The notes: generated by a model from the sequence alone, not told the origin. Shown: positions 6,728-56,595, numbered from the stretch's first letter. The stretch: 64,000 nucleotides of DNA from a virus (IMGVR_UViG_3300031853_000033:3494-67493); one strand, 5' to 3'. Numbers and translations are program-made.

Positions 6728-6756
6728 ATAATATCATCATCAACTGGTTATGTCAA
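6728..6756 (-). promoter_or_regulatory. Putative sigma70 promoter for the cro-like gene.
   Basis: On the minus strand: TTGACA, 17-nt spacer, TATTAT. Confidence 0.4.
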
Positions 6757-6796: not shown

Positions 6797-6825
6797 TTGA
6801 ACTATACTTCAAAGCATGGTATACT
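6797..6825 (+). promoter_or_regulatory. Putative sigma70 promoter for the repressor/immA/int operon.
   Basis: TTGAAC (6797-6802), 17-nt spacer, TATACT (6820-6825). AAGGAGG RBS at 6847. Confidence 0.45.
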
Positions 6826-6860
6826 TTCCTTATAAAAGCAAATCACAAGGAGGTGCTGAA

Positions 6861-7439: not shown

Positions 7440-8184
7440 GAAAGAGGTACTCGCTCTTTACAAATTTGCCGGGATCAAATCTTTTCCTATAGACATATAT
7501 GCGATCATCGCTGTTCTCGGCTACAGGATACTGACCTACAAAGAAGCCGCTTCTAATGAATCACAACTTCAAAGAATGAAACTAATATCCGGCGATGCAT
7601 TTGTTATCCGAAAATCAAAAGTCATCTGCTATAACGATCAAGTGCCTTTTGAAGAACGAATCAGATTCTCTCTTGCCCACGAAGTCGGGCATATCGTCAT
7701 GATGACGGATGATGAAGATATAGCTGATGCATTTGCAGCTGCTCTCCTCGCTCCGCAATCGATGATATTTGCCCGTCAAATCAAAACAGCGGAAAAGATA
7801 TCGGAGGCATTTCAAATATCCGTCACAGCGGCAAATAAAGCGGTTCTCGACCGTCCTGTGTTTCCGACAGATGATATGCTTGCCATGATAGATTACTTCG
7901 GAGAACGCCACACCTGTCCATGGCCTTTCAATCAGCCTGATGCAGTTGTCGCAAAATCTGCACCGGTTCCTGCTAAGATTGTTCATGCCGAAATTAAACA
8001 GTTCCCGAAAAAAGATAACCGTCAGAAGATAGCAAGTCTCCGCAGACAGATTGCCAGAATCAATACATCCATTCTTAATATAGATTTTCAAGATAAAGAC
8101 GCACAAACCAAATACGATAAATATAAAGCCAAACTGAGAGAAGCCGAACAAAGGTTGTCCTATCTCACTGAGGAGGTGATGTAA
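7432..8184 (+). CDS. immA: ImmA/IrrE-family zinc metallopeptidase (anti-repressor protease).
   Basis: HEXXH motif (AHEVGHIV). Overlaps the repressor gene and precedes int, as in immR-immA-int modules. Confidence 0.8.
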   Translation: MFEKEVLALYKFAGIKSFPIDIYAIIAVLGYRILTYKEAASNESQLQRMKLISGDAFVIRKSKVICYNDQVPFEERIRFSLAHEVGHIVMMTDDEDIADAFAAALLAPQSMIFARQIKTAEKISEAFQISVTAANKAVLDRPVFPTDDMLAMIDYFGERHTCPWPFNQPDAVVAKSAPVPAKIVHAEIKQFPKKDNRQKIASLRRQIARINTSILNIDFQDKDAQTKYDKYKAKLREAEQRLSYLTEEVM

Positions 8185-14179: not shown

Positions 14180-16663
14180 TTAAAGTGAGAAGCCCAGGGC
14201 CAGCGGGCCGACAGCCGAGGCGTAGTAATTGGCATTGCTGCCGCCGATGGAGATATCGTAGAAGTAATTGGTGCTATAAGCAGACCGCAGCCACCACCAC
14301 GAGGCGCTGGACGCGCCTGCTTTCATCTTCTTATGACTTGCATTATCCGTGAAGATTTCAGAATATCTCGGTCCTTTCGTCTCGAAATATTCTGTAGTGC
14401 CATCAAACATTTCATGTCTGGACGGAATCCATACATCTTCAGTGGATGCAACGTCATTAACTGCACTACCAGATCTGAAAATTCTACTATACTTCGTAAC
14501 AGGTTTGATTGCATTTCTAACATTTTCCGGAATGAGAGGTTTGATAGTCTCTTTGAGGTATGTCCTCATTTCAGATGCCTCCCATCCGCCTTCTGTCGTG
14601 TTAGATGCATTCATTCTGTAGTCCGTCTTCAGCAGTTCCATACTCAGCCAGTCATAAGTAGCCGTGCCGCTGCCGGATGCAAGAGGACTGGTATTCTTAC
14701 CAACAATTTGCATATTAACAATTCCTTCTGTACCCAAATCAAGAGGCTTATAATTTCCTACTTTATAATCAGCTGTTCCATTATTTATTTTAGATATTAT
14801 CGTATCCCAACTGTCTGTAATTTCTGCTACTTCAACAGGTGAACCGAATTTAGCAGTAAAAGTAGTATTTCCCTTCACTGTAGCACTTGCAGGCTCCCAT
14901 CCTTCAAACGGATAGTCTGTAGCACTACCCTGAGATGTTGTAGGTGTTGCACCAGTATAAGCATTAGCTGCTGTCACAATAGTACCGTAGTTGACATTGC
15001 TTATCGTCTGCAATGTTCCGCCGCCGTCAGCCGTAGCCTTGACAAAGGTTACGTTGTACTTGCGGAGCGTACCCGTGAAGCAGGCGTAGACGTTTCGGTC
15101 GGCAACAATATTTGTAAGTGCATCATCATCAACCGTGTTGTCATCGGTACCCTTTGACCATCCCGCGAAGGTATAAGTGTACTGTGCATCCGATGCCTTT
15201 GTCGGCGTGGTACCTGTGTATGTACCGTTGCCGCCATCAAGGACGGTCTGAGTCGCACTGTCGATGCGAGTCGAACCATTCCAGAAGTAAAGCTGTGCGG
15301 ATGTGTGATCTGCCGTGACATCGATATACGGATACCGTTCCTCATAGTCTGCTATCTGTGCGCCTGTAAGAGTATCAGTAGAAATCTTGCCGATAACCGT
15401 TGTCTTACATCCACCGTCAGCAATAGCAATCGTATCACCGTTCGTATCGATTCCACGCATGGTATCAAGGATAGCAAGTACAGATTCGATTTCTGCCGCA
15501 TCCGTAAGCCTCCACTCAAAACCAACAAGCCTGAGTCTTGTACCGCTCTGAGCATTTGCATATACCGCACGAAGTATCGTCAGCATATCAAGGTTGGTTC
15601 CTTCAAGCCTCAGTGCTTCGATGTTTGCATAAGATGCGATCTGAAAATCAGTAATCTTTTTCTGATTCAGTACGGTCAAGTTTTTGATCGTTTCGGGCAG
15701 ATGCAGTTTCTTTAAGTTGCCGCCGTTCGGGAGTGTCAAGCCTGTTATTTCAGTACCTTCAAAGTACGCCTCTTCCAGTATGGAGCATCCCGAAACATCT
15801 ACCGCCTGTTGTGTATGACCTTGCATTGTGGTATCGCCTAATCCGACACAGTTTCGTGCATCAATGACTTTAAGCAGTACATTGTTACCGAGCGTCATCG
15901 CTCTCATGTTCGGATTGGAGTAAGAGGCACTCTCGTCACCGACTTTAAGGCTCTGTAACCTTGTTGCTTTAGAGATATCACAAAGGCCGACTTTAAGTCC
16001 GGAAAGATCACCAATACTCGCAAGCTGTGACGCACTATGAATAATGACCACGTTATCATTCATGCTCTGATACGGGCATAAATGTATTGCTGTAGTACCC
16101 CTTGCCGTCCTCTTTGAATCATACGTCCCATCCCAGTTGACCGTAGTGTAGATATCAGCATACGGTGTGATGCTGATATTGCTGACTGCGTACGGTCTGA
16201 TTGTGATGGTATCGGACAGTGCATCTCCTGCGTTGAATTTCGAATCCATATAGCGGAAACGATTGTAAAGCCACCATTTTCGCTGTTCCGTCTTCAAGCC
16301 TAAGAGCATACCGAGATAATCGGTTCCGTCTTCAAGGTACGGCTGAATGTACTTGTAATCCTCATCTTCGTTAACAAGATTCTCAGGCCATTTAGACTGA
16401 TGTTCCTCAAAAGCTGTCTCGATCTTATCGTATGATAATGCACCACTGTTTCGGAGTGTCCTGTACATATCCGCTATCTCGTCCCCGAAAGCATCACGAA
16501 TGTTATTCCACAGGACACTCTTCTGACCGTTAAATACATCTGCGCCGTCTATGGTATCGGTATCCTCAAGGTTGTAAGAGAAAACAAGTTCACCTTCATT
16601 ATTTATTCCGAGTGCCGTATCCATATCGTACGGCAGAAAGACAATCTTTTTCTTTATGCTCAT
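14180..16663 (-). CDS. Tail fibre / receptor-binding protein with leucine-rich-repeat region.
   Basis: 827 aa with LRR-like repeats (LTLPNGGNLKKLHLPETIKNLTVL...). Tail-module position. Confidence 0.55.
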   Translation of the reverse strand: MSIKKKIVFLPYDMDTALGINNEGELVFSYNLEDTDTIDGADVFNGQKSVLWNNIRDAFGDEIADMYRTLRNSGALSYDKIETAFEEHQSKWPENLVNEDEDYKYIQPYLEDGTDYLGMLLGLKTEQRKWWLYNRFRYMDSKFNAGDALSDTITIRPYAVSNISITPYADIYTTVNWDGTYDSKRTARGTTAIHLCPYQSMNDNVVIIHSASQLASIGDLSGLKVGLCDISKATRLQSLKVGDESASYSNPNMRAMTLGNNVLLKVIDARNCVGLGDTTMQGHTQQAVDVSGCSILEEAYFEGTEITGLTLPNGGNLKKLHLPETIKNLTVLNQKKITDFQIASYANIEALRLEGTNLDMLTILRAVYANAQSGTRLRLVGFEWRLTDAAEIESVLAILDTMRGIDTNGDTIAIADGGCKTTVIGKISTDTLTGAQIADYEERYPYIDVTADHTSAQLYFWNGSTRIDSATQTVLDGGNGTYTGTTPTKASDAQYTYTFAGWSKGTDDNTVDDDALTNIVADRNVYACFTGTLRKYNVTFVKATADGGGTLQTISNVNYGTIVTAANAYTGATPTTSQGSATDYPFEGWEPASATVKGNTTFTAKFGSPVEVAEITDSWDTIISKINNGTADYKVGNYKPLDLGTEGIVNMQIVGKNTSPLASGSGTATYDWLSMELLKTDYRMNASNTTEGGWEASEMRTYLKETIKPLIPENVRNAIKPVTKYSRIFRSGSAVNDVASTEDVWIPSRHEMFDGTTEYFETKGPRYSEIFTDNASHKKMKAGASSASWWWLRSAYSTNYFYDISIGGSNANYYASAVGPLALGFSL

Positions 16664-19600
16664 TCCGTAACCACCGCCTCTCCGATAAATGACGGGAATG
16701 CGTTCTTCGCTCTGGAGTCAACCATTAAGAACAGTTCCGTGAACAGCCAGTAGAACAGTGCGCTGTCAATCTCGACATAGTTTCCGACTTCCGCTTTGAA
16801 TTTGGCAAGTCTGTAAGCCACCGTATCATTGATATATGTCACGCCATCATAAGTTACGGATTCCGCAAGCGCATCTCCCGTAGCCGTAGTCCTATCAGTC
16901 GTTGTGATCCACTCTGCAAATGACTGCAGCTGCGTGGGGTCTTCGTATGCCGGCTTGGTGTCGGGATAGCGTGCCTCAAAATCCGTCTTCCATCCCGGAT
17001 CTGAATAGTCGGCAGTCTTCCATAATGCCCAGAGGCCTGTGTTATTCAAGGTCTCCCATGATTCATCCGGTTCCGCAAAGCCAAACACATCCTCGTTTGA
17101 TTTGTCATTGTTAAAGTTGTATTTCCCCATAAAAGTTGTCTCTTCCCCGTCATCGTAGAAAATGACAATCGGAAAACCATCAATACCCTGTCTGACTTTA
17201 GGATTAGCCACCTGTGCGGGAGTCTTATACGGGCAGGCAACTTCGTATGCTCTCACCAGCTCGACATTGTTCGCGCCCTCACTAGATGCCACGTCCGCCT
17301 TAAAGCAGAATGTTTTAACCGGGATAGCATCGTCATTTATGGCATATTTACTTACGTGGCTTCCACCGTTCATGTCAAAACCACCGTTGAATTTGATCTT
17401 CCAGTTCTTGCGAGGATAATACTGAGAAGATGTACCTTGGATGTCTATCTCAGCATCCACAAAAGTAAATCCTTTTGACGGATGTACGGGATCAACGTAT
17501 GTACCGGAACAAGGCTTCTTATCTCCTTTACTGCTAGGCAATTCGGGAGCTGTGAGAATAAGATACGGAAGGTTTGAAGGCAGGTTATTAATCGTAATAG
17601 CCCCGTAAGCATCATAGACATTATTCCGAGTATATCTCTCAAGCATCAAGGAACCGTCCTGTGTATCAGCTATCCAGTTTTCCACAATCTGCTGTGACGA
17701 TAAGTTATTGTCATACACTCTGATGTTGTAAACATCAATGGTGCAATCATTGGAACCGATGGAAATATCCACAGGCATGACCTGCGAAAAATCATCATCA
17801 TCGGGATATGCCACAACGCCCGAAGCTATACCGTTAATGTAAATAAACAGCAGTCTTGATTCCGCTCTCTTTCGGCAGACAAAAGCAAGTCGAACGTGTT
17901 CGTCCTCTTTGTACTGCGTACTTATTTCCGACTGTTCTGAAGTTAATGTGGCTTTCTGGGCTGTGACCTTCAAACCTCTGCCGCCGCTCATACAAGACAG
18001 GATCGTTGCATCATAATCAAGCACGTTCCGTGTGGCAAACTCCAGTTCGATTGTCTTTCCCGTAGTTCGGAAATCTGTACCAAACAGCTTATACGGAATA
18101 ATGACTCTCGCATCTCCCGAAACTCTCAGACAGGTGATGCCGTCCGCATCCTTCTGCCATCCGTCAGATGCCCAGTTGAAGCCTGTCAAAGTCGATTCAA
18201 CATTTCCGTATTTCCATTCCGCTCTGTCATCAGCATTGTTACTCCGTCCTTCGCTTGTCAGATACAATGCAAGCGCATCTGTAACGGGTTCTACATCAAT
18301 TTCAGATTCCGTGACAGTGATAGCAAACGTCTTTTCCGTTCCTCTACAAGCGAGTTTGATCGTGAGCGTTCCCGCCTCATTCGCCCTGTATGCGTAAGCC
18401 TGTTCGTTTCTGTCTACATTTTCCGTTGCGACCTGTTCATTGTTCGCATATATCTTGACTTCCGCAACGGCGTTGACGGGATCATATACCTGATACGGTA
18501 TCTGAATCGTTGCGTACTGTTGCTGAGTATATGCAGAAAAGTTACTGGTTATGATCGGAACCGTACTGAGAGGATCAGCATAAATAAACTCAAAATAAAG
18601 TTCATTTGAAGATACCGTCTCGCCGTTAATTTCTGCTGTGAAATACACCCTCAAACTGTGTGCGCCATGACTCTGAGCAGGGATTGTGACAGAAACATCC
18701 TTATTGGAGAGGCTCGTTACTTTCGTTTCGGCAAGCTGTCCGTCAATGTAGTAGTAAATCGTCTTTTCGACATTTCCCGTAGGTGTACAGGTGAACACGA
18801 AAGGCCCGGTGTAAACTTTTGTGGTGTCGAAGTAAGACGAAAGACTCAGTACAACTTTTGTCACGTTATAGTTCAGACTCCTGCTGTTGCCGGAAAGGTC
18901 AATAACCTTCATGGTGACAGTATGCGTTCCGTTCGATACATAGCTTGCAACATCAATAGTGACGTTGCCTTGCGGTTTGTTGAACGATGCCCGTACCACT
19001 CTATCGACAAGCACTTGTACAGTTCCTTCGCCTGTTGGAATATCATCCTGTGTGCTTGACCATGTGAAGCTGATCGGACAAGTGCCGTTGCTCTCAATGG
19101 TTTTTGATACCCATCCCGAAGTGTTCGCAATCGCCATTGTGGTTGTGGACTGATCACCGCCACCACCTCCACCACCGCCTATTCCTGTGATGGTAAACAG
19201 CACTTCGTTGTCATGTGCAAAGTAGGCAACGCCATTCTCGACATACCCGTTATTAACTGCCTCAAGCATCTGCAAATCCAAGGAATCAACACGATCCTTC
19301 AGATTTCCTTGCGAATTGATAAACTCAGCTACTTCGTTTTCGGCATCTGTAGCATGATTGAGGGCATCTGTAGCAATCTCTTCCGCATTGGTAGTCATCG
19401 CAAGGATCTGTTGCGCTTTGGTGTCGATTTGCTCATTGACCTCTGTACCTTTATCATCAACCGCTCCGACAGATTCTGTTTCGGCATTATCTATGGCAGT
19501 CAATGCTTCGGTCTTTGCAGTTCCGATATTGGCAATTGCCTGATCTTTTGCATCGGAGATATCGCCGAGAGTATCGTCTCTTGCTGTCTCAATTGTCTCT

Positions 19601-36813: not shown

Positions 36814-38448
36814 CTAGAACGGACTGTCCATTATCTCTGTTTTTGCTCCGACAAGGTTTGACGTAAACTGTGCAAACTGGGCAAGACCGTCGGGAACGTC
36901 ATCATGCATATTCTTTCCGGCAACCGTATAGGTCATCAGGAATGACATTGCTCTGCCGTAATCGGATTTCGGAGCGTATAGAGATTTATCTTTGAACAGC
37001 ACATGCTTCTTCACCCACTCGGCATTGACAATGATTTTTGTCTCCTTGTTCTGTGTAGTGTAATGCATCGTGATTCCGCAGGCTTGCCGTCCGAGAATTC
37101 TCTTTTCAACCTCAGTTCCGATACGGTCACCGCCATTGTTACTCTCGAAGTCAACCATCTGCATTCGATGATTGACAATCATATCGGCAATGCGCTGATA
37201 CTGTACCTCATAGTCTGATTCATCAGAACAGATGCAGTCATCCATGTAGTAATCGTTGCCGTATTGGTACATGCACGGCAGGAAGAGGAAGTCGGTGCCT
37301 TTGTTCTTCGTATCACAGATCCCGGTGATGGAGTCCGGATTACCTTCCGGCATAACAACATATCTCCGTAAGCTATCTTCCGGATAAAGCAGACCTTCAC
37401 GCTCAATCGGCTGATTCATGTACAGCGCTTTCCAAGACATATCGTCCATGATTTCTCTCTGTTCCCGGTAGAACTGTGTTGTGAAGCCGCCCTCTATCGG
37501 ATAGTCGAAATTGCTCTCGTCATTCTCATCCATCGCAGGAATAGCAATGAACCTTGCGGTCGGGCTGTCTCCGTAGATCCTCTGCAATCTTCCGACAACA
37601 TCATGAACTGACCATCTCGTCTGAATATGCAGTTCCGCACAGCCACCCATCTTTCTCTGCCGGGCATCATCCGTGTATTTCTGCCACAGCTTATCCATCT
37701 GCGGTTTACTGAGCGCTTGTTCGATACCTTCCGTCAAGTCATCGCAGTAGAGCAGCTGCTGTGCTCTGACCTTACCTGCGTTTCCGGAACCGATGGATGT
37801 AAATTCCAAAGTCGAGAAACGCTTTATGCTCTTCTTGGTCTTGCCGACATCGAGCATCATATCTTTGGCATTCGTGCTTGTTATCCGCAGATTCGGGAAA
37901 ATTTCATGCCATTTATACTCACCTTCGGGATCTATGATTCTCTGGCACTCGTTATATGCTCCGGCGAGGAATGCATTGTTGTGAGATACGGTCAGTATCG
38001 GCTTTTCATGATGTTTTCCTGCCCTCCAGGTGATGTAGAAGAGTGCAAGTGTGGTCTTGCCCGTCCCGGGAGGCAAGCTGATACACAGCAGGTCGATTAC
38101 ACCGTCTTCCAAGTCTTGCAAAGCATCAACAAGAATTTTCAGCTGCTTTCTTCTCGGCAGATAAAATCTCTGCGACACTCTGTCTTTTTCCATGTAGAGC
38201 AGATAGCTGTCGAAATCGTACGGTGCCAGAAAGAAAATGATTTTCCAGTACAGATCCGCAAACCGAGGATCGTATCTTGTCTCCGCAGAACATATTTTCT
38301 TTGCTTCTTTCGCACATTTCAGTGCGTAATCGAGGAATATCGAATTCTCCTCGTCATGAACAGCCGCGAACATATCGACAAGATTGTGCATGTTTTTGTA
38401 CTCATGCAGATTTGCCTTCATCAGCCGTTCGATGATTTCTCCGTTTGT
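36814..38448 (-). CDS. terL: Terminase large subunit.
   Basis: N-terminal ATPase (Walker A LPPGTGKTTL). C-terminal RNaseH-like nuclease (DFESNNGGDRIG). Start placed at ATG 38448 with GGAGAG RBS. Confidence 0.75.
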   Translation of the reverse strand, partial: TNGEIIERLMKANLHEYKNMHNLVDMFAAVHDEENSIFLDYALKCAKEAKKICSAETRYDPRFADLYWKIIFFLAPYDFDSYLLYMEKDRVSQRFYLPRRKQLKILVDALQDLEDGVIDLLCISLPPGTGKTTLALFYITWRAGKHHEKPILTVSHNNAFLAGAYNECQRIIDPEGEYKWHEIFPNLRITSTNAKDMMLDVGKTKKSIKRFSTLEFTSIGSGNAGKVRAQQLLYCDDLTEGIEQALSKPQMDKLWQKYTDDARQRKMGGCAELHIQTRWSVHDVVGRLQRIYGDSPTARFIAIPAMDENDESNFDYPIEGGFTTQFYREQREIMDDMSWKALYMNQPIEREGLLYPEDSLRRYVVMPEGNPDSITGICDTKNKGTDFLFLPCMYQYGNDYYMDDCICSDESDYEVQYQRIADMIVNHRMQMVDFESNNGGDRIGTEVEKRILGRQACGITMHYTTQNKETKIIVNAEWVKKHVLFKDKSLYAPKSDYGRAMSFLMTYTVAGKNMHDDVPDGLAQFAQFTSNLVGAKTEIMDSPF

Positions 38449-38618
38449 CATTAAGCATCTCTCCGTGACGGCTCTGCCCGGTTTTGCAAGATATTGTGAA
38501 AAACCTATGGCATACATCTCGATATTTTAAAAAAACAGTGTTTACGACATATCCCGGACAAAGCCGTGGGGGTCGCTTAACGAAGAGACGCTTTATATCA
38601 ATCTCAATTCGGGCGAAG

Positions 38619-38691
38619 CAACGCATCTCGGAGTCGAACCGAGGAATCCGGCTGTCAAAGAGCCGTGCCTTCTCCACTTGGCGAATGCGCT
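38619..38691 (-). tRNA. tRNA-Gln (anticodon TTG); no encoded CCA.
   Basis: Manual fold: acceptor AGCGCAT/ATGCGTT, D-arm GCCAAGTGGAGAAGGC, anticodon stem CGGCT/AGCCG with loop CTTTGAC, T-arm CTCGG-TTCGACT-CCGAG, discriminator G. D-arm nearly identical to E. coli tRNA-Gln. Confidence 0.8.
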
Positions 38692-39317: not shown

Positions 39318-40007
39318 TCATGAGGCATTTAATATTTTATCCAGAGTCCGCTGAAAGTCATTGTAGTTCTTCTTACGTTCTTCTCTCTCAGCTTCGCTCT
39401 CGTTCTTACGTATTTCTGCTTGTATCTCTACTGCATTCCGCGTTCGATTTGCACTCTTGTACTCAACATCATTCTCTCCGGTGTCGTGATAGAACATTGT
39501 TTCCATTCTGCCGTCAAGATATTTGATGTATCCTACAGGATCGCCGTCTTTTAATCCTTCTGCCGATATTGTTCCTCGGATGTCAATATTGTTCCTGTAC
39601 TCTTTGATACCATATTTCTCTTTCAACCTCTTAATTTGTGGGGTCGAAGGGCTAATACTGCCAAAACTAAGGTTTATCATCTCGCAAAATTTTATTTTTC
39701 CGATCTGACCGCCAATATACTTCTTGAATGCTTCTTCGAAAGTTTCGTCATCACATTTGCACTTTCTTCCTCCGACAGCACCATGAGCCTCTTTTGTAAT
39801 ATCGCCATACTTTCTTCCGATATGTGCAGCTTTATGGCATTTGTAACACAATGGCACTACATTTGATGGAGCATCAGTGCCACCGAGAGCGACAGGTACA
39901 ATGTGATGAAACTCTACTCGGTCTTGCGATCCGCAGTTAACACATTTGTCTCCGTGAAGTTCAATCAACTGGTTTCTGAATCTGTCTGTTGTGTTTCGTT
40001 TTCCCAT
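39318..40007 (-). CDS. HNH endonuclease (packaging-associated).
   Basis: HNH zinc-finger motif CVNCGSQDRVEFHHIVPVALGG...NVVPLCYKCH. Adjacent to the terminase, as in cos-type HNH-dependent phages. Confidence 0.8.
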   Translation of the reverse strand: MGKRNTTDRFRNQLIELHGDKCVNCGSQDRVEFHHIVPVALGGTDAPSNVVPLCYKCHKAAHIGRKYGDITKEAHGAVGGRKCKCDDETFEEAFKKYIGGQIGKIKFCEMINLSFGSISPSTPQIKRLKEKYGIKEYRNNIDIRGTISAEGLKDGDPVGYIKYLDGRMETMFYHDTGENDVEYKSANRTRNAVEIQAEIRKNESEAEREERKKNYNDFQRTLDKILNAS

Positions 40008-40724: not shown

Positions 40725-41252
40725 TTATACATCATCGACAGGTATTTCGCTGGCTATCTCTTCCGGCGTCTTCTCCGCTTGTAAGGTATTAACCGGCGCC
40801 ACATCCACGCGTTGAACGTCTTCCAAACCGTCATAATTCTTTTGCCAAAATATAGCAATTGGCGGAGACAGCTTATTTTGGCTTGCCAAAGACTCCCTGT
40901 AAAGTGAAAGTCCTTTACAGGCCTTTTTTATAAGTCTAGCACATTCAGCACTTACGTTCCGCCCGTCAACACTCTTTGCCCGTCCTTCAATTACATTCTT
41001 TACATCGTTTTTATCCAGTCCCAAACATGCATATAACCCTAAATTACCCGGTTTTAGTCCTCTGGATATACATGATTCAAAATAGTTATTTATTGCTTGC
41101 TTTACCTGTAAAGGATTATCTAACATTGGATATTCACTGTTAATAACGTCTAGACACACTTCTATCATAGCTTTATTTAAATCATAGTCTATATCTACAT
41201 TTTCACCGGATATTAAACTATTCTTATAACCTTCTTTATTACCTCTACCCAT
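40725..41252 (-). CDS. Putative terminase small subunit / DNA-packaging protein.
   Basis: 175 aa with TerS-like N-terminal motif (KPGNLGLYACLGLDKNDV). Located upstream of HNH-TerL with an AT-rich leader. Confidence 0.4.
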   Translation of the reverse strand: MGRGNKEGYKNSLISGENVDIDYDLNKAMIEVCLDVINSEYPMLDNPLQVKQAINNYFESCISRGLKPGNLGLYACLGLDKNDVKNVIEGRAKSVDGRNVSAECARLIKKACKGLSLYRESLASQNKLSPPIAIFWQKNYDGLEDVQRVDVAPVNTLQAEKTPEEIASEIPVDDV

Positions 41253-41700
41253 TGTTATATAACCACCTTCTTTACATACGGAGTAATATATATATTATTC
41301 CTTTATACGATCACACTATATCTTTACTACTGGATAAAATAAAAAAGCTGTCAACTATAAAGTTATTATTATCAGGAACACTATATATAATATAATAATA
41401 TATAATAGTATTCTCAATTAACTATAACTCTATATTAACAGCTATATGTTTTAAATATCTATATTCAATTTACAGTTAATATAATTCAGATTATCATTCT
41501 TTGTCAAGTATTAAAATTCTTTAAAGGGCAGCCAAACCAAACCCGGCGCTTTTCTCGTTCCGGATCGTCCGGACGTTTGAAATATTCTCTTTTCCTGACT
41601 CGTTCCCGGAATGTTGCCCGGACCTATTGCCTGAACGTTTGGAGAAAAATGTCATTTTCTGCCGGCATTCTTTGTACGGATCGTTCTCTAAATCAGGCAA

Positions 41701-41727
41701 TAAAAAAAGGGACTTTTTACAGTCCCT
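41701..41727 (-). terminator. Rho-independent terminator after the radC-like gene.
   Basis: Perfect 7-bp stem AGGGACT/AGTCCCT with a 6-nt loop, followed on the minus strand by TTTTTTTA. Confidence 0.5.
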
Positions 41728-41846
41728 GGAATATCATTAAAGTAACAAACATTAATTCAAAACCGGCAATATAAATTATACTTTTCATCCCGTCCCCCCC
41801 GTTTAAAACAATGCAATTACAGAATCATTGTAAAATCATTATTGCA

Positions 41847-42320
41847 TTACCTCAAAATGTTATTTTCCATGAAGGAAAAATAGTTGTTACCACCTACAAT
41901 TATATGGTCAAGTACAGGTAAATCGATAATTTTTCCGGCGTCAATAATTCTTTTTGTTGCGTTTATATCACATTCCGATGGGCTGCAATCGCCTGTTGGA
42001 TGGTTATGCACTATAGTTATATTTGTCGCCCCTATCATAAGCGACTTTTGAAGAATTTCCCGAACCGGGAAAGGACTGCAATTAGTCGACCCGTGCGACG
42101 CTTCGAAAAGCCCTATTAATTTACATTTTGTATTCAGGCATAAAATATAAACAAATTCATCCGAACATTCAGATAAGCCGACTTCATAAAGCATAAACCG
42201 CGCTATATCCTCCGGATTCGTAAACGCGCGGCGCCCGTCAATATTGTAAGTCGTGTTTGTTTCTTTTACATACGGCAAAAAACCGGATTCTAAAACTCCT
42301 TTATATTCCTTCACTTTCAT
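41847..42320 (-). CDS. RadC-like JAB-domain protein (DUF2466).
   Basis: JAB metalloprotease motif ITIVHNHPTGDCSPSECD...LDHIIVG. Confidence 0.75.
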   Translation of the reverse strand: MKVKEYKGVLESGFLPYVKETNTTYNIDGRRAFTNPEDIARFMLYEVGLSECSDEFVYILCLNTKCKLIGLFEASHGSTNCSPFPVREILQKSLMIGATNITIVHNHPTGDCSPSECDINATKRIIDAGKIIDLPVLDHIIVGGNNYFSFMENNILR

Positions 42321-42335
42321 TTTTGCCGCCCTTTT

Positions 42336-42737
42336 TTATAAAATATAATCATTCACAACAAAACTTATGCCGGAATATTTGTCTATCACTTCATCATCTT
42401 GCGGAGTCTTCCATGAATCCCACTCGTCCGAAAAATATAATTCCTGCCGGAGTGTTTCAAAAAATCCCGGAATGTTATTCTTGATATAGTGAATATCAAA
42501 ATAATCAAGTGAATAAATCCAGTCGTCTAGCAATTCCTCTACTCTTGTATTGATATATGCCGCAAATTGCGCCGGCGTTCCGCCCGGAAACTCCTCCTCA
42601 AATGATTCTTTTAAAGTCTCTTCCACCTCCCACACTGACCACTTAAAACCCTTGTAAAAGATTTCAGGATCGGCCCACTCGTTATAAAAAACATAATCAA
42701 TGTTTTCGTTACCGCAATAATTGTTATATCGTTTCAT
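42336..42737 (-). CDS. Highly acidic hypothetical protein (candidate DNA mimic / anti-defence).
   Basis: 133 aa with about 28 D/E versus 10 K/R. Sits in the ardA operon. Confidence 0.4.
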   Translation of the reverse strand: MKRYNNYCGNENIDYVFYNEWADPEIFYKGFKWSVWEVEETLKESFEEEFPGGTPAQFAAYINTRVEELLDDWIYSLDYFDIHYIKNNIPGFFETLRQELYFSDEWDSWKTPQDDEVIDKYSGISFVVNDYIL

Positions 42738-42813
42738 GTTTTTACCTCCTCATTTTTTTGTAAATCCCACGCCCGGCAATGAGCCGGTTCCGATCCTCTC
42801 ACGTGGGAAAAAA

Positions 42814-43386
42814 TTATGCTATTTTGCTGATACGTCTGTTTACTTCATTGACGTTATAAACGTCATATTTATTGTCAATCCCGTTTTTGTTTACAGGAAG
42901 AATCATTACCGCGATATCATTGTTAAAGTTAGACAATATTGGCGTTCTATAGTTTGTCCCGATCCATGCGCCGGTCTGATTAAAGCACTTTAAATTGCTG
43001 TAATATAAATCGTTTATAAAGACTCTTTCCCCGTCCGCGGTAAAGCAGACACGTAAATCAATATTATTCTGTTCTACTTCCAGCTTATACGGAGTAATGT
43101 CCAGTACCGCGCCGGTTGCCGGAATGAGCTTTTCAAACTCGTATCTAGTGCATTCTGTCGGTAACTCATTTTTGTTATTTGCTCTAACCGTCTGACCGTC
43201 CTGCAAATCAATGAAACGCGGGGACGCAATGCGGAATACTGCATTGTACATTCCAGGATTGATTTTTACGAGAATATGCCCGTCACATATATAAATCTTT
43301 TCACCGTCACGCTGTAAAATCAGCGTATCGCATTTTGCTAACCATTTGGCCGCCCGCTTTTCATCTGCTAAAAATCCTTTTGCCAT
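42814..43386 (-). CDS. Hypothetical protein in the anti-restriction operon.
   Basis: 190-aa ORF. No recognisable motif. Confidence 0.4.
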   Translation of the reverse strand: MAKGFLADEKRAAKWLAKCDTLILQRDGEKIYICDGHILVKINPGMYNAVFRIASPRFIDLQDGQTVRANNKNELPTECTRYEFEKLIPATGAVLDITPYKLEVEQNNIDLRVCFTADGERVFINDLYYSNLKCFNQTGAWIGTNYRTPILSNFNNDIAVMILPVNKNGIDNKYDVYNVNEVNRRISKIA

Positions 43387-43561
43387 TGTTTAAAATCTCC
43401 TTTTCTTGATAAATATTTTTTTGGCTAAATCCCCGGTTGCAATTGAAAGCCACGCCTGAAGCGCCGGGGAAAGACTTATAAAACTGTTAACTTATACGCT
43501 ATTCTTGCCGGAAAGAAGCGACGAAAGAACATGTATTTTTTGTTTAGTTTTTCCATCCTAC

Positions 43562-44095
43562 TCATGCCACTACCTCATAAATGTTTCCGCTTTCGCTAAC
43601 ATAAAAACGCCCTTCCAGCATGATGTCCCGGCCGTATGCTTCAAAGTCGAAATAATTAATTATGTCTTTCGGAATATTGAGGCATCCGATTTCGATTGCA
43701 AATGCATATCCAACTGCGTGCTCTTCTGACTCCGATCCTTGCGTTGTGGTTATGTAAAGCACGTCGTTTAAGTTTTCTTTGATCTCTTCCGCCGTGTCAT
43801 AGCCGTAATAAATCAGCGCCGCCGCCGCTTCCTCGTTACCGTCCAGCACTTCCGCAAGTTTGTTCAAATCGTCCAGATTGTCATACTCTCCGATTTTCAG
43901 CCCGTCAATATCCGTCTCATAGTCAGTTATAAAATACTCTTCGTAATAATTGCCGTCTTCGTCCGGCTCCTCACTGATTCCGATCCTGTTTAATACGTCT
44001 TCAATCTCTTTATCAGTTGCCGGAAGCTCTAACCATTCTCCGATTAAATATCCTTCGTTGTACTTGCCTAAATTCGTTAAATAAATTCTAATCAT
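43562..44095 (-). CDS. ardA: Antirestriction protein ArdA.
   Basis: Start at internal ATG (RBS AAAGGAGAA). MIRIYLTNLGKYNEGYLIGEWLELP... matches the ArdA N-terminus (MKIYVANLGKYNEG). Acidic, 177 aa. Confidence 0.8.
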   Translation of the reverse strand: MIRIYLTNLGKYNEGYLIGEWLELPATDKEIEDVLNRIGISEEPDEDGNYYEEYFITDYETDIDGLKIGEYDNLDDLNKLAEVLDGNEEAAAALIYYGYDTAEEIKENLNDVLYITTTQGSESEEHAVGYAFAIEIGCLNIPKDIINYFDFEAYGRDIMLEGRFYVSESGNIYEVVA

Positions 44096-44229
44096 TGCTT
44101 TATTCTCCTTTTCTTTATTGATCATTGTTTTCGCTGCCTGGAATACTATCCTGCTTTCATCATCGGAACCGGCGCTAAGCACGTTCCCGATGGTTACTTG
44201 CTTTTATTGTATCCCTTTTTGATAGTATC

Positions 44230-44258
44230 ATTATACCTAATTCTAGGTAGTTTGTCAA
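44230..44258 (-). promoter_or_regulatory. Consensus sigma70 promoter driving the ardA operon.
   Basis: Minus strand: TTGACA, 17-nt spacer, TATAAT. The -35 lies inside the inverted repeat GTCAACCTAA. Confidence 0.55.
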
Positions 44259-44349
44259 CCTAAATTTAGTTATTAAATTAAATTTACTATTTACTAAATC
44301 TAGGTGCATTCTTTCCTATTATATGTAATTGCATACACCTATTGTTAGG

Positions 44350-44379
44350 TTGACACGCTTTAATATTTCATGGTAATAT
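44350..44379 (+). promoter_or_regulatory. Consensus-like sigma70 promoter for the HTH regulator gene.
   Basis: TTGACA (44350-44355), 18-nt spacer, TAATAT. The -35 lies inside the partner inverted repeat TTAGGTTGAC. Confidence 0.5.
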
Positions 44380-44427
44380 ATAGGCGTAAAATTCTATCTG
44401 TATTCATTCCCGGAAAGAAGGTGTATT

Positions 44428-44649
44428 ATGTTTGTATATAAAGTTGATGTTATGGAAAGATTAAAGAAAAAAGGATACACAAGAAAGGAATTGCAGGAAG
44501 TACACAAAATAGGTAACTCCCAATTCGATAAAATTTACGCCGGCGAAGTAGTCGGTATTAAAGTACTGGATAAACTTTGTACATTATTGGAATGTCAACC
44601 CGGGACGCTGATAAAACATGTTCCGGACGGTAAAACGACAGAAAAGTAA
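44428..44649 (+). CDS. Small Cro/C1-type HTH regulator (HTH_26/YozG-like).
   Basis: 73 aa. ...KELQEVHKIGNSQFDKIYAGEVVGIKVLDKLCTLLECQPGTLIKH. Confidence 0.7.
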   Translation: MFVYKVDVMERLKKKGYTRKELQEVHKIGNSQFDKIYAGEVVGIKVLDKLCTLLECQPGTLIKHVPDGKTTEK

Positions 44650-45567
44650 ATACCGATCCACGCCGGGAATATTCTCTTTTCCTGTTTTCCAATGATCACG
44701 CCGGCGCCGGATTGTTTCGGACGTTTCGAACGTTCCCGGCGTTGTTTGCGGTACCGGTGTGCCCTTGCGACAGGTCAGGCGTTTACAGGTGGAAGTGCGT
44801 CCTTTTTTCGGACGTTCCAGGTGGAATGATCAGCTGCAGCGCCGCCGGGACGTTTTGTGCGACTTTTTGACCGGATCCGACAGGTCCGGCGATCCCTGGG
44901 CAATCACCGGGCATTTTGTGTGACTTTTCGGAGTCGGTTAGCACCTCGTGCGCGTACACGAGAGAAGCTGTCCCAGATCACGGGGCGGCTTCTTTTTGGT
45001 GAGCACTTTACGCGCGTACGATCACGACCAGGGCAAAATCCAGGGCGAACCCGGGATGAACCAGAGAGAGCACCGCAGATGACCTTCTCGCGCGTGTCGG
45101 CTGTGCTCGGGTGTATGCGAATGCGTAGGATGCCGTTTCTTACTGTGGATGCTTAATAGAATAGGGCATTTTTGGGCATAAGTGGTCGCAGGTGTATATT
45201 TTATCCACCGCACCTACTTACGTGTCTAAAACAGGCTCCTGCGTGTGTTTACGGGCATTGTACGTGCCGTGGCTGCTCCACTGTGTACGTGACCGCATGA
45301 CATGTATGTGTATGGCTCTGCTCCGCATGTGTGACGGCTCAGAAATTTCAAAATTCAAATCTCAAAATTCTACCGAAATACCAGAAAAGTTTTTTCTTTG
45401 CGGCATCCGCAGAAATTTTACGGATAAGGCGTATGATTTTTGCGGAATCTCAAAATCTGCCGCTTTAACTGCCGGATACGAAATTCTTTTTCGAAAATCG
45501 GCACAAAATGTTCCAAAATGCAAATTTCAATTTCATATTTCCCAGACCACAGTTTGATTTCCGCAAA

Positions 45568-45700
45568 GTACCCCTCGTTTAAAATTCGCATGTATCCGGG
45601 CGAGTCCGGTACCCTTCGTAAAGTACCCCTCCTTTAAAATTTCGGCATACATCCGCGAGTCCGGCACCCCTCGTTTGATTTTTGGATACTCCGTAGGAGG
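45568..45700. repeat. Tandem ~41-nt direct repeats (two full copies plus partial copies).
   Basis: GTACCCCTCGTTTAAAATTCGCATGTATCCGGGCGAGTCCG then GTACCCCTCCTTTAAAATTTCGGCATACATCCGCGAGTCCG, with a third partial copy. Confidence 0.75.
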
Positions 45701-45792
45701 GTAGGACGGTCTGAAAGCGAGGCGCTTGGGCTTACACAGATAGCCTTCGCGCACGAAAAAGGAGCCTCGGAAAGTGAGACTCCTTTAATTTT

Positions 45793-46074
45793 TTATGCTG
45801 TCTTTTTAACCCTTATACGCTCAAACTCATCCCATGCGAATGACCGGCAATATCTTTTTGGCAATTCCAATGTCACGAAACACTTGTCCACGGCTCTCAC
45901 GATGCATCTTACCGGCTTTTCTTTATCATCACCACCGAGCGGACTGTACATAATTGTTACGGTCATCCATTCACGTACATCGTGTTTTCTCCGCATTTCG
46001 TTTTTGATCCTTTTGTAGAATTTTTCCTGCCCGTCTACGACCCCGTAATCCAAATCTGAGAATATAGCGATCAC
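45793..46074 (-). CDS. Hypothetical protein.
   Basis: 93-aa ORF at the distal end of the replication-module operon. Confidence 0.4.
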   Translation of the reverse strand: MIAIFSDLDYGVVDGQEKFYKRIKNEMRRKHDVREWMTVTIMYSPLGGDDKEKPVRCIVRAVDKCFVTLELPKRYCRSFAWDEFERIRVKKTA

Positions 46075-54890: not shown

Positions 54891-55354
54891 TCCTGTTCAC
54901 CTCTCATATCTGCTCCGCAGTTCGGGCAGTAAGCAAATGCTTTTACCTTGCTGTCATGAATAAGATAATTACATTCAGAACAAGCACTTGTAACTGGGTA
55001 CTTTCCAATCCACTTCCCTTTCTTCCGCTCTGGCTGTGCGGATGGCAATTCCAACAATTCTCCTTCCATCACATCGCTATAGACGGCGTTTGCGCTCCAT
55101 GCCACATGACCTTCACAATTCTGTTCTTCTGCGAACGTCAATCTAAATGTATTTTTCCTCACGGCATCAATCGCCGCCCGTCTATCAATCAAATCTGAGT
55201 TGTTCGGAATTTCCGAACAGTTGTTTTTCGGCTGTGCGGACGGAAGCTTTTTTATTCCGTTAACGATTGTTTGTGCCAAACCTTCCCACTCTCCGCACTC
55301 AAATTCAACGATACTAATCGCCGCCTGTCTGCTCACCAAACTATCATCCATCAT
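54887..55354 (-). CDS. Modular paralogue: two SRQAAI...LPSAQP modules + C-terminal zinc ribbon.
   Basis: VSRQAAISIV...KKLPSAQPK and IDRRAAIDAV...LELPSAQPERKKGKWIG, then CSEC...CPNCG. Start placed at MMDDS after a KGE-encoding RBS. Confidence 0.5.
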   Translation of the reverse strand: MMDDSLVSRQAAISIVEFECGEWEGLAQTIVNGIKKLPSAQPKNNCSEIPNNSDLIDRRAAIDAVRKNTFRLTFAEEQNCEGHVAWSANAVYSDVMEGELLELPSAQPERKKGKWIGKYPVTSACSECNYLIHDSKVKAFAYCPNCGADMRGEQE

Positions 55355-56240
55355 TTCGCCTTTCTGCCCAATAGCAAAATCCATTGCATGTTACCAAGTC
55401 AGCATTAAGATAATCGCACCTGCCAAGTCCATAGCCCTTCATTTTTCCCGTAGTTTGAGTCCAGTGTTTGCAAGAATTGCAACGGATGATTTCGGGCTGA
55501 ACGGATGGCAACGCCTTAATGGCATCAAAAGCCGATTTTCCGGCATACTTCCATTCAAGAGCATCTAATGCCCCTTTTCTGCTTATTGTGTCCCCGTCTG
55601 TCTTGATTTCCGACTCAAGAGACATAAGCCTTGTTTCGGCATCCGCTTCCGTGTGTCCGTCCCAATGTGGCGCCCTCGGAAGATCAATACAGTCAAACAT
55701 ATCCCAATATTTATTTTCGTAGTGGTAAGTATAACTTCCCTCCGGCGTATCAATTCCAACAACGAACCATCCGCCACCAAAGCAGTATTCCCCATCTTCA
55801 TGTCTATACGATTTCCATGCCTTGCTCTTATACGCCTTTACAAGTGCGGCGAATAAAATCATCCTTTGTTCATAAAGCCCATTAAACGTGTGAAAACCGT
55901 CAGACACTTCTCCGATATCGTTAACGCCTGCAGCGGTACATATTGCTTTCCTTCTTGCCATTTCTGTATCAGTCATCATTTTGCCTTTCCCATATCCGCA
56001 AAAGAAATCTTTCGGTGTCTCAAAGGTTCCGTATCTGCTCAGACATTCGCATAAGTGATTGTTTTTCCAGTGTTCGCAAAACTCGCAATGGATGATTTCT
56101 GGCTGTGCGGACGGTAGATTCTCCAAATCGTACTTATATTTTTCAAATGCCTTATACCAATCGCCTGGTGTGTCAGCAATGCACCCGGCAAAGTTGTACA
56201 GAATATCAATAGCCGCCGCTCGACTTATCAGATCATCCAT
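55344..56240 (-). CDS. Modular paralogue: two SRxAAIDxL...LPS(A/V)QPE modules flanking a central Trp/Gly-rich domain.
   Basis: ISRAAAIDIL...ENLPSAQPEIIHC; central WKSYRHEDGEYCFGGGWFVVGIDTPEGSYTYHY; ISRKGALDALE...KALPSVQPEIIRC. Start at MDDLISR. Confidence 0.5.
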   Translation of the reverse strand: MDDLISRAAAIDILYNFAGCIADTPGDWYKAFEKYKYDLENLPSAQPEIIHCEFCEHWKNNHLCECLSRYGTFETPKDFFCGYGKGKMMTDTEMARRKAICTAAGVNDIGEVSDGFHTFNGLYEQRMILFAALVKAYKSKAWKSYRHEDGEYCFGGGWFVVGIDTPEGSYTYHYENKYWDMFDCIDLPRAPHWDGHTEADAETRLMSLESEIKTDGDTISRKGALDALEWKYAGKSAFDAIKALPSVQPEIIRCNSCKHWTQTTGKMKGYGLGRCDYLNADLVTCNGFCYWAERRNDG

Positions 56241-56595
56241 CCTGTTCACCCTCCTGATATGATTCTGGTAGTGGCATCCAAGCAACAACATTTCGTGTGT
56301 AATACCAAAAGCGTTTTCCCGAATCATACTGTCCACATCTATCAACATCTACAGTTTTGATTCCACCACTGTCATCTGTGACAAGAACTAATTCATCTAC
56401 ATCAGGCAATCTCTCACTGCACGGAATCCACTGCTGTTCCGGCTGTGCGGGTGGAAGTGCTTTTACCTGTCTGATTGCCCAATCCGTCATAGCATCAACT
56501 ATACAAGGATCGTCTTTTGCAGATTGAATGTTGCCGTCCCAGTACGCAACTCTCAGCGCATCAATCGCCGCCTGTCTGCTGATTAAATCACTCAT
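56233..56595 (-). CDS. Modular paralogue: ISRQAAIDAL-LPPAQPE + DUF551 C-domain.
   Basis: MSDLISRQAAIDALRVAY...VKALPPAQPEQQWIPCSERLPD...VVAWMPLPESYQEG. Confidence 0.55.
   Translation of the reverse strand: MSDLISRQAAIDALRVAYWDGNIQSAKDDPCIVDAMTDWAIRQVKALPPAQPEQQWIPCSERLPDVDELVLVTDDSGGIKTVDVDRCGQYDSGKRFWYYTRNVVAWMPLPESYQEGEQDG

Follow-up and report, generated by a model that had tools for sequence, protein, structure and literature searches.

Between the replication and packaging genes of a temperate, gut-type siphovirus, whose host probably belongs to the Bacillota, lies a block of about 3 kb that carries an antirestriction gene. An initial annotation read it as an anti-restriction island and took its flanking repeats to be consistent with the arrival of a moron or cassette through recombination. 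Is the block such an insertion, a module serving DNA replication, or a resident accessory operon of the phage lineage? Computational analysis of the window (the whole stretch of DNA analysed, 64,000 nucleotides) and of ten related metagenomic phage loci identifies it as a known kind, an Aca-like anti-defence operon under predicted repressor control, which is probably turned off by its own small repressor. The operon is long established in this phage lineage, which exchanges genes within it, and is not a cassette inserted between repeats.

Layout and cargo of the operon

The features of the locus, with coordinates counted from the first letter of the window, are the following:

41581..41597, plus strand: left 17-mer AATATTCTCTTTTCCTG, present in the window only, inside a poorly conserved spacer
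41708..41727, minus strand: intrinsic terminator, AGGGACTgtaaaaAGTCCCT then T7, kept in L010 and L017
41717..41788, minus strand: hydrophobic mini-ORF of 23 aa, MKSIIYIAGFELMFVTLMIFQGL, with a GGGGGGA ribosome-binding site upstream; last operon gene
41847..42320, minus strand: RadC-like JAB/JAMM protein, 157 aa (Pfam PF04002, E 1.4e-34)
42336..42737, minus strand: acidic 133-aa protein (net charge -18, pI 4.09)
42814..43386, minus strand: 190-aa protein of an unannotated family
43562..44095, minus strand: ArdA, 177 aa (Pfam PF07275, E 1.4e-34)
44230..44258, minus strand: operon promoter TTGACA-17-TATAAT (12/12 consensus matches)
44234..44249, no strand: predicted operator O1, TACCTAattcTAGGTA, filling the operon promoter spacer
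44258..44271, no strand: imperfect predicted operator ACCTAaattTAGTT (one mismatch), adjoining the operon -35 box with one base in common
44337..44350, no strand: predicted operator O2, ACCTAttgtTAGGT, abutting the HTH promoter -35 box
44350..44379, plus strand: HTH-gene promoter TTGACA-18-TAATAT with extended TG
44428..44649, plus strand: HTH_26 (Cro/CI-type) regulator, 73 aa, predicted repressor/autoregulator (Pfam PF13443, E 3.9e-13)
44631..44705, plus strand: conserved 75-bp linker at the HTH gene 3' end, containing the right 17-mer (44668-44684)
44718..44821, plus strand: several CGGACGTT(CCCGG)-type motifs clustered on the same strand, with another copy at 41570-41577

The minus-strand genes form a single operon, read from the promoter in the order ArdA, 190-aa protein, 133-aa acidic protein, RadC-type JAB protein, 23-aa peptide and terminator. 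Its description as AT-rich was borne out (GC 39.4% for the island vs 44.2% for the window), and profile matches and coordinates confirmed the ardA, RadC-like, acidic 133-aa and 190-aa ORFs and the divergent HTH gene that had been called from the sequence. The 23-aa mini-ORF and the operon terminator were absent from that first description; the mini-ORF is kept with conservative substitutions in L010 and L017 (84-87% nucleotide identity). As in a moron, transcription appears autonomous, own promoter and own terminator both being present.

The ArdA assignment is supported by a match to PF07275 of 120.4 bits (cut-off 27) that spans positions 1-152 of the 155 in the profile, by a match to PHROG 2059 'anti-restriction protein' (E 5e-30) and by a full-length match to Tn916 ORF18 (2W82, 7BTO, 7BTR; E 9.1e-19), in which ArdA residues 3-176 align to 5-164. 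With a net charge of -32 and a pI of 4.05, the protein has a DNA-mimic-like composition, and we infer that it inhibits type I restriction enzymes by mimicking DNA. In most relatives the first gene slot holds either ArdA or some other very acidic protein. In L009 that slot encodes a protein of 131 aa and net charge -28 instead of ArdA, and the HTH gene is retained, while L017 retains ArdA next to a different HTH allele; regulator and cargo thus reassort independently.

The RadC-like protein matches PF04002 with 119 bits against a cut-off of 22.1 and PDB 2QLC with an E value of 2e-17, and its intact JAMM motif HxHx7Sx2D, HNHPTGDCSPSECD, aligns with that of 2QLC. The 133-aa protein yielded a confident structure model without a recognised fold. 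The 190-aa protein is tentatively predicted to be a single sliding-clamp-like domain. Its family, which occurs in phages and in other mobile elements, falls into about 115 clusters at 50% identity.

The predicted clamp fold bears on a reading in which the operon serves chiefly in DNA replication, repair or host takeover and incidentally carries ArdA, with the HTH protein as a general timing regulator. The operon does adjoin the replication module, including the phage's own DnaN, and the literature leaves the function of RadC unsettled (PMC5512222). We nevertheless consider this reading unlikely. A Pfam search returned no match of the 190-aa protein to DNA_pol3_beta, its comparison with the phage DnaN by hhalign gave a probability of 0.2%, i.e., no sequence homology, and its length of about one domain does not fit a multi-domain ring architecture. 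Distant members of its family are found among arrayed small accessory ORFs and in an element that also encodes FtsK/SpoIIIE. Moreover, about 1.1 kb of non-coding DNA together with the convergent HTH gene insulates the ArdA operon from the replication operon. The ArdA operon is served by a promoter of its own, its first slot usually encodes ArdA or a very acidic protein, and its cargo is highly variable among relatives, as is typical of accessory or counter-defence genes. RadC and a clamp-like fold would also be compatible with a role in DNA metabolism, which we counted against the anti-defence explanation.

Within an anti-defence operon, the 190-aa protein may be a counter-defence or takeover effector made of a single sliding-clamp-like domain, and the 133-aa and 131-aa acidic proteins and the 23-aa membrane peptide may likewise be anti-defence factors; we regard this as a speculative proposal with a small chance of being correct. 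The latter three are candidates by guilt-by-association, as is the 190-aa protein, whose gene adjoins ArdA or its replacement in every relative retrieved. Its presence in all relatives is partly by construction because the 190-aa protein was the query that retrieved them. If the proposal is true, the protein could, for example, serve as a decoy for, or poison, the host beta-clamp or those nucleases of defence or repair that depend on a clamp.

Promoters, regulator and predicted operators

The initial annotation placed two near-perfect, outward-facing sigma70 promoters in a 245-bp gap between ardA and the HTH gene. Both promoters were confirmed (leftward 44258 to 44230, rightward 44350 to 44379), and the leftward one is the sole perfect TTGACA-17-TATAAT match in the 64-kb window, where just one other 17-spacer promoter lies within one mismatch of the consensus. 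The size of the gap had to be corrected. ATG 44095 is preceded by a strong AAAGGAG ribosome-binding site whereas GTG 44182 has none, and since ArdA most likely begins at ATG 44095, the distance from its start codon to that of the HTH_26 gene is 332 bp rather than 245 bp and the operon leader is about 128 nt long.

The regulator has a pI of 9.15. Pfam assigns it to the generic HTH_26 family only, and the nearest NCBIfam match, VanU, falls far under its cut-off. A 10-bp inverted repeat, GTCAACCTAA/TTAGGTTGAC, had been noticed at the two -35 boxes; it is present there (44254-63 and 44345-54), but the regulator probably works through a 14-bp palindrome, ACCTA-N4-TAGGT, instead. This palindrome occurs in three copies, at the operon promoter spacer, at its -35 box and at the -35 box of the HTH promoter. 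With one mismatch allowed, the window has four matches where 0.66 would be expected, and three of them lie within the 332-bp gap. Of the TCTAGGT repeats said to sit beside the -10 boxes, the copy at 44242-48 does lie inside the promoter, while that at 44299-305 is 60-70 bp from either -10 box.

The palindrome sequence changes along with the HTH allele across relatives. In L009, whose HTH protein is 92% identical in amino acids to that of the window, the same palindromes are found with another spacer: O1 keeps its arms and differs in the palindrome spacer, and the imperfect operator is kept. At the same offset within the promoter spacer, L017 (HTH identity 51%) carries AATCGA-N4-TCGATT, L010 (36%) carries TACTCT-N6-AGAGTA and L008 (36%) carries ACACT-N4-AGTGT. 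A second copy stands beside the regulator -35 box in the window, L009 and L017; in L010 and L008 the palindrome scan found no matching second palindrome near the regulator promoter. This covariation, together with the positions of the predicted operators on both promoters, is as an autoregulated burst-then-shut-off circuit predicts, and it lends computational support to the earlier suggestion of autoregulated expression. The earlier view of the block as an anti-restriction operon, read from a strong promoter of sigma70 type beside a divergently oriented HTH regulator gene, is also supported computationally.

Relatives and flanking repeats

Does the block as a whole come and go between genomes? 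The operon is found at the same position in 10/10 relatives, including those whose DnaN is only 36-38% identical (L014-16 and L025), where the order DnaN, p93, non-coding DNA, regulator, ArdA, 190-aa gene and TerS is kept. No empty site lacking the operon was found among the 10 relatives or the 80 loci kept from 168 TerS-family matches. The proposed comparison of relatives, with presence or absence of the block and junctions at 17-mer repeats, thus turned out otherwise: the whole unit shows no such polymorphism, and only RadC, the ArdA slot and small ORFs vary individually, with junctions elsewhere. RadC, for instance, is a single-gene insertion relative to L010-L013; the indel is clean (41799-42333), with similar RBS-type sequences at both junctions, far from the 17-mer repeats.

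These findings weigh heavily against the view that the 3-kb block is a recent cassette or moron whose insertion left the repeats at 41551-41660 and 44655-44760 as junction scars, a view that we now rate as highly improbable. The exact 17-mer does occur on both flanks, as had been reported (41581 and 44668, its two occurrences in the window); nowhere in the window does the left flank find a better local match, and the flanks have two more short blocks in common. Promoter and terminator also belong to the block itself, its GC is somewhat reduced, and L009 diverges from the window from about 41565, close to the left 17-mer. However, the left 17-mer is missing from every relative, all of which carry the operon, and its spacer (41521-41707), which varies in all relatives, is the least conserved stretch of the region. 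The right 17-mer belongs to the 75-bp linker that is kept even where the HTH allele differs. The two repeats lie outside the terminator (left) and the HTH gene (right). The pair of degenerate direct repeats of about 110 bp did not hold up, the three shared blocks being not collinear (A-B-C on the left, B-A-C on the right), and local alignment recovers the 17-mer alone: without it, the best alignment block scores 23, a value equalled by 30 of 622 control tiles (about 5%). Nor is the 17-mer exceptional, since about eight other independent exact repeats of at least 17 nt occur in the window. The two 17-mers are thus no sign of where an insertion began and ended, and the cassette reading is not supported because relatives with homologous flanks have the operon but not the repeat pair, the observation that the initial annotation itself had named as refuting it.

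The flanking sequences could alternatively be functional sites bracketing the operon, with the 17-mer and CGGACGTT(CCCGG) acting in phage-protein binding or as RNA-level signals, such as antitermination or processing sites, in read-through transcripts. All three CGGACGTT copies of the window lie inside the two flanking spacers, copies flanking the operon are always on the same strand (window and close relatives), and each close relative has them on the right-hand side of the HTH gene, L010 having in addition an exact 13-mer on the left; conservation of the linker around the right 17-mer across HTH alleles fits as well. Yet this enrichment was judged post hoc, and the 13-mer with up to two mismatches was found twice across the window against 0.74 expected, which is not significant. 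Copy number and spacing differ, the L008 and L009 copies are inside coding sequence, and two deeper relatives, L014 and L025, lack the motifs. Functional sites are an improbable reading in our judgement, albeit less so than junction scars. The exact 17-mer and the one-strand CGGACGTT motifs beside the operon were also counted against the explanation favoured below, which does not account for them.

Proposed working and comparison with known systems

The explanation that we favour, and consider likely on sequence grounds, is that of an early accessory operon, autonomous and repressor-shut, which is an ancestral syntenic module with slot-wise exchange. On entry into a naive cell, which would hold no regulator, host RNA polymerase would fire the perfect-consensus promoter at once. 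ArdA, judging from its family, would mimic DNA and block type I restriction enzymes, and the co-transcribed genes would probably have other counter-defence or takeover roles. As the 73-aa HTH_26 protein accumulates, it would bind as a dimer to ACCTA-N4-TAGGT in the operon spacer and at both -35 boxes, closing the operon and limiting its own synthesis; operator positions and covariation suggest a short burst followed by silence, including in the prophage. In the ancestral module of the phage lineage, cargo and the regulator/operator pair are swapped slot by slot, probably through recombination in which conserved linkers, and the similar ribosome-binding-site regions that separate genes, serve as crossover points. 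The phage encodes an SPP1-type portal and a Mu-F protein, which suggests headful packaging; if so, the operon would lie at the last-packaged, first-ejected end only in the first headful of a packaging series. The main use of the operon is as a source of candidate anti-defence genes.

Small HTH repressors of the Aca type control strong anti-defence promoters in phages, and their control is reported or predicted to extend to adjacent anti-defence operons without Acr genes (PMC6765145, PMC9410906, PMC13551039). The present locus resembles them in its small HTH gene beside counter-defence genes, in predicted palindromic operators overlapping a very strong promoter, and in a predicted logic of entry burst followed by repression and autoregulation. 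Unlike typical aca genes, which are co-transcribed downstream of the anti-defence gene, the regulator here is read divergently from the opposite strand, under a separate promoter, instead of forming the last gene of the operon; this we counted against our explanation. The cargo also differs, with ArdA and uncharacterised genes and no recognised Acr, and the circuit is predicted from sequence. A second published burst-then-repress precedent, beside the Aca repressors, is the action of Reg of plasmid p576 (Regp576) on ardC (PMC8708921, PMC13551039). The Bacillus plasmid likewise provides transient expression after DNA entry into a Firmicute, and its establishment genes are variable and mosaic (PMC8708921); Regp576, however, is a ribbon-helix-helix protein acting on direct heptamer repeats in a conjugative plasmid that carries ArdC, whereas a phage HTH_26 protein, inverted-repeat operators and ArdA are found here.

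The ArdA protein itself is akin to Tn916 ArdA (ORF18; 2W82; with EcoR124I, 7BTO/7BTR) in its full-length homology (E 9e-19) and its net charge of -32, but it is phage-encoded and governed by a double-stranded-DNA promoter and repressor circuit instead of lying in the leading region of a conjugative element. Compared with beta sliding clamps and PCNA (DnaN, gp45), the 190-aa protein is about a single domain and shows no sequence homology to them by hhalign (probability <1%), and the phage already encodes a complete three-domain DnaN besides it. Finally, the operon shares with morons and accessory-gene hotspots (Hendrix-type mosaicism) a promoter-genes-terminator unit between two core modules, a lower GC and gene-by-gene replacement among relatives, and it departs from them in being conserved in position across a deep clade, where whole-unit presence/absence polymorphism was not found.

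Gene content and genomic setting of the ArdA operon

The locus is best read as a burst-then-shut-off counter-defence operon, located between TerS on one side and replication genes on the other in a temperate siphovirus-like genome that encodes almost every gene on the minus strand. The lysogeny module, presumably the phage's lysogeny switch, is followed by lysis, tail and head genes including an SPP1-type portal and a Mu-F protein. A near-identity DNA search of GenBank phage records (n = 50,697) returned no match to the window. The best TerL matches among 185,579 species genomes, found in Bacillota and Eubacteriales MAGs, are just 39-42% identical and the host is therefore not pinned down. At gathering thresholds, the tRNA-Gln gene is the sole Rfam match.

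Features of the operon and its surroundings
6816-9530, plus strand, lysogeny module: HTH_3 protein, M78 peptidase and serine recombinase
36814-38517, TerL
38618-38691, minus strand, tRNA-Gln (anticodon TTG), between the HNH gene and terL
39318-40007, HNH gene
40725-41252, TerS-like gene
41253-41520, AT-rich TerS leader, about 26% GC
41708-41727, intrinsic terminator of the operon
41717-41788, minus strand, hydrophobic 23-aa mini-ORF, MKSIIYIAGFELMFVTLMIFQGL, with a ribosome-binding site of its own
41847-42320, minus strand, RadC-like JAB protein (E 1.4e-34; intact JAMM motif HxHx7Sx2D; 2QLC E 2e-17)
42336-42737, minus strand, acidic ORF of 133 aa (net charge -18, pI 4.09)
42814-43386, minus strand, unknown ORF of 190 aa, no family match
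43562-44095, minus strand, ArdA (Pfam E 1.4e-34; Tn916 ORF18 full-length E 9e-19; net charge -32)
44428-44649, plus strand, HTH_26 regulator of 73 aa (Pfam E 3.9e-13)
44900-45720, ORF-free, GC-rich non-coding DNA of ~0.8 kb; core repeats at 45560-45690
from 45793 upward, replication and nucleotide-metabolism genes, including a complete DnaN

Using the 190-aa protein as query, we retrieved ten related phage loci, L008 and L009 from IMG/VR and L010-L017 from metagenomes; L025 was added through a TerS search. Profiles and composition matched the gene content initially annotated for the block (RadC-like JAB, acidic ORF, 190-aa unknown, ArdA and HTH), and that observation is largely real. Two features were missing from it, the operon terminator and the mini-ORF whose 3' end falls within this terminator. 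The mini-ORF peptide is kept with conservative substitutions in L010 (MKNIVYIAGFELLFIALVLFQGL) and L017, and its sequence probably specifies a small membrane peptide. ArdA had been started at GTG 44182, which has no ribosome-binding site; ATG 44095 is preceded by a strong one and should be the start, so that the gap between ardA and the divergent HTH_26 gene is 332 bp long.

Searches of the 190-aa and 133-aa proteins against Pfam, PHROGs, NCBIfam, PADLOC and PDB sequence databases gave no match apart from one to SpbK at E 0.04, which is at chance level. The 190-aa family is small and unannotated (13 clusters at 90% identity; ~115 at 50% identity by profile search) and was not found among the 185,579 species genomes. 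Its distant members occur in arrays of small accessory ORFs and in one element with FtsK/SpoIIIE and RepL. Homology to DnaN was considered for this family, and hhalign gave no relationship to the phage's own DnaN. The 133-aa family comprises 7 clusters, and its confident model (pLDDT 88) shows no recognisable fold.

Elsewhere in the early region, a metallo-beta-lactamase-fold protein (186-905, minus strand) has a sub-threshold match to the anti-Pycsar Apyc1 family (20.7 bits; cut-off 50) and may be another counter-defence gene. Exact 17-19-nt repeats in the replication/early region (53163/53367/53618; 54637/56553; 55316/56563; 55344/56850) point to paralogous genes or to intergenic elements present more than once, for instance near the WDGH-domain gene at 55344-56348.

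Divergent promoters and predicted operators

The leftward operon promoter (44258->44230, TTGACA-17-TATAAT) fits the consensus at 12/12 positions, and the rightward regulator promoter reads TTGACA-18-TAATAT with an extended TG. Among the promoters with a 17-nt spacer in the 64 kb, just one other departs from the consensus by no more than one mismatch. It lies at 6728-6756 on the minus strand, faces the CI-like HTH_3 repressor/M78 peptidase/serine recombinase module, and presumably serves as the main early promoter of the phage. The palindrome ACCTA-N4-TAGGT, with at most one mismatch, has 4 copies in the window against a whole-window expectation of 0.66, and 3 of them are in the gap:

44235-48, filling the spacer of the operon promoter
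44258-71, adjoining the -35 box of the operon promoter
44337-50, abutting the -35 box of the regulator promoter

The 10-bp inverted repeat described in the initial annotation is present. It makes more sense as a by-product, because each of its arms joins a -35 hexamer to one half-site of a local palindrome. One of the two TCTAGGT repeats placed beside the -10 boxes is half of the first predicted operator, while the other lies outside the promoters.

The regulator has been exchanged among relatives, and the operator changes along with the HTH allele.

HTH alleles and palindromes within the operon-promoter spacer
Window and L009: HTH 92% identical in amino acids; TACCTA-N4-TAGGTA, spacer bases differing
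L017: HTH 51% identical to the window; AATCGA-N4-TCGATT
L010: HTH 36% identical to the window; TACTCT-N6-AGAGTA
L008: HTH 36% identical to the window; ACACT-N4-AGTGT

These allele-specific palindromes all sit at one offset within the promoter spacer, and in the window, L009 and L017 the -35 box of the regulator promoter has a further copy next to it. Such covariation, a natural one that locates the predicted operator without experiment, is the strongest available support for the prediction that the HTH protein binds these sites, and their position within the promoter spacer implies repression. The proposal of autoregulated, HTH-controlled promoters is supported and sharpened by this computational evidence.

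Flanking DNA and gene turnover among related phages

The block had been viewed as a cassette inserted at flanking direct repeats, bounded by an exact 17-mer (41581-41597 and 44668-44684) and by further degenerate blocks. Both 17-mer copies exist in the window. The right one begins 19 nt past the HTH stop codon, within a 75-bp linker that is kept across differing HTH alleles (one mismatch in L009, two in L010-12). The left one is missing from every relative, including L010 and L017, which align well at the mini-ORF, terminator and TerS promoter beside its site, and its home spacer, 41521-41707, is the region's least conserved segment. When the two flanks were aligned locally, the 17-mer alone was recovered. 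Once it is removed, the top block, CCGGATCG-TCCGGACGTTT, scores 23 and is equalled in 30/622 control tiles, and the order of the three shared blocks differs between left and right; the degenerate blocks do not form a collinear repeat. About eight further independent exact repeats of at least 17 nt occur in the window. In IMG/VR the 17-mer turns up in 7 unrelated contigs, none of them homologous to the window, and it was rejected as a known repeated element. Comparing relatives, as the initial annotation had proposed for refuting its model, revealed the operon in place with the left 17-mer absent. We therefore reject the cassette model, the blocks not being collinear and the left spacer being so poorly conserved. 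Unless relatives are compared, an exact 17-mer on both sides of an "island" can be misleading.

Other short motifs recur in these spacers. All 3 window copies of CGGACGTT lie in the two flanking spacers, and the copies flanking the operon in close relatives are on a single strand throughout. The extended motif CGGACGTTCCCGG lies right of the HTH gene in every close relative, and on the left side too in L010; its enrichment across the whole window is not significant.

In all relatives the operon lies between TerS and a conserved non-coding region, which is located downstream of both DnaN and a 93-aa gene. Among the TerS-family metagenome loci, no relative devoid of the entire operon turned up. 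The order ArdA then 190-aa gene is kept in L014-16 and L025, where DnaN is just 36-38% identical, and the module is therefore old. Its slots vary. The ArdA slot holds a 131-aa protein in L008 (8095-8490) and L009 (about 2190-2582) and a 261-aa protein in L010-13. The 131-aa protein (net charge -28, pI 4.05) has no family match, is unrelated to ArdA, and is a candidate alternative DNA-mimic anti-restriction protein; hhalign gave no relationship to the 133-aa family. In L014-17 small ORFs replace the 133-aa gene. Compared with L010-13, RadC forms a clean indel of one gene (window 41799-42333), both junctions of which carry similar RBS-type sequences.

Two other positions vary in gene content. 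At the 45716/45748 junction, relatives carry 0.7-1.7 kb that is absent from the window (L008 4657-6362; L010 6657-7394; L017 5841-7550) and that encodes a DarA_C+HTH_3 protein; L008 and L017 additionally encode an extremely acidic protein of 260 aa there (net charge -39 to -43). The junction looks like a second accessory/counter-defence hotspot beside the non-coding region. The TerS-TerL slot is occupied by an HNH endonuclease in the window, by a Bro-N/ANT protein in L010-13 and by a DUF559/MTES_1575 protein in L017; L008 and L009 have no gene there. The TerL match of L017 falls in two pieces (15976-16419 and 17395-18201) ~1 kb apart, which points to an inserted element (intron, intein or homing endonuclease) in its terL.

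The non-coding stretch 44650-45790 is about 51% GC against 44% for the window, and 44900-45720 is kept at 76-78% in relatives. A structured RNA was considered there. Rfam searches at E up to 10 over 44400-46000 gave nothing credible, the fold z-score is -0.9 with 3/20 shuffles equal, and the RNAalifold covariation term is unfavourable. Lacking an Rfam match, excess folding energy or covariation, the region looks like a DNA-level element. It contains three to four TTTTAAA[C/G]GAGGGGTAC repeats, 41-55 bp apart, and after these comes an AT-rich stretch bearing GAAATTT-type repeats. The TTTTAAA-type motif is still present in the deep relatives L014 and L015, and its repeats are possibly origin iterons.

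On the other side of the operon, the TerS leader has a near-consensus promoter upstream (41507->41478, 11/12). Its nucleotide identity is 95% in L009 and 88% in L017, against only 68-71% for the TerS gene (68% in L009), marking it as a constrained non-coding element and as a candidate pac site or late-gene regulatory leader. The SPP1-type portal and the Mu-F protein point to headful packaging. In SPP1, the last-packaged DNA is the first ejected. We speculate that, were pac in the TerS leader, the operon would occupy the last-packaged, first-ejected end in the first headful of a series but in no later one.

Proposed timing and known repressor-timed operons

In the burst-then-shut-off reading, the consensus operon promoter would fire upon phage entry and ArdA would then neutralise type I restriction. 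The divergent HTH protein would next close both promoters and keep the operon silent in the lysogen. What the locus chiefly offers is candidate anti-defence genes: the variable slots served by a single regulated promoter provide a short list of uncharacterised candidates, namely the predicted clamp-fold 190-aa family, the two acidic proteins, the RadC-JAB protein and the 23-aa peptide, with rumen- or gut-type phages of Bacillota as candidate sources.

Much is known about ArdA, and anti-defence operons timed by a repressor are established, so the locus leaves current thinking unchanged. Burst-then-repress logic was shown for the Aca repressors of anti-CRISPR operons and for Reg of plasmid p576 (PMC8708921, PMC6765145, PMC9410906), the latter controlling ardC (PMC8708921), and a recent report places other anti-defence operons under Aca control as well (PMC13551039). 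The control logic that we propose for the phage operon would be the same. Unlike in these systems, the regulator is divergently transcribed and of HTH_26 type, and the cargo is ArdA, in a phage; the locus pairs a phage ardA operon with a regulator of the HTH_26 type.
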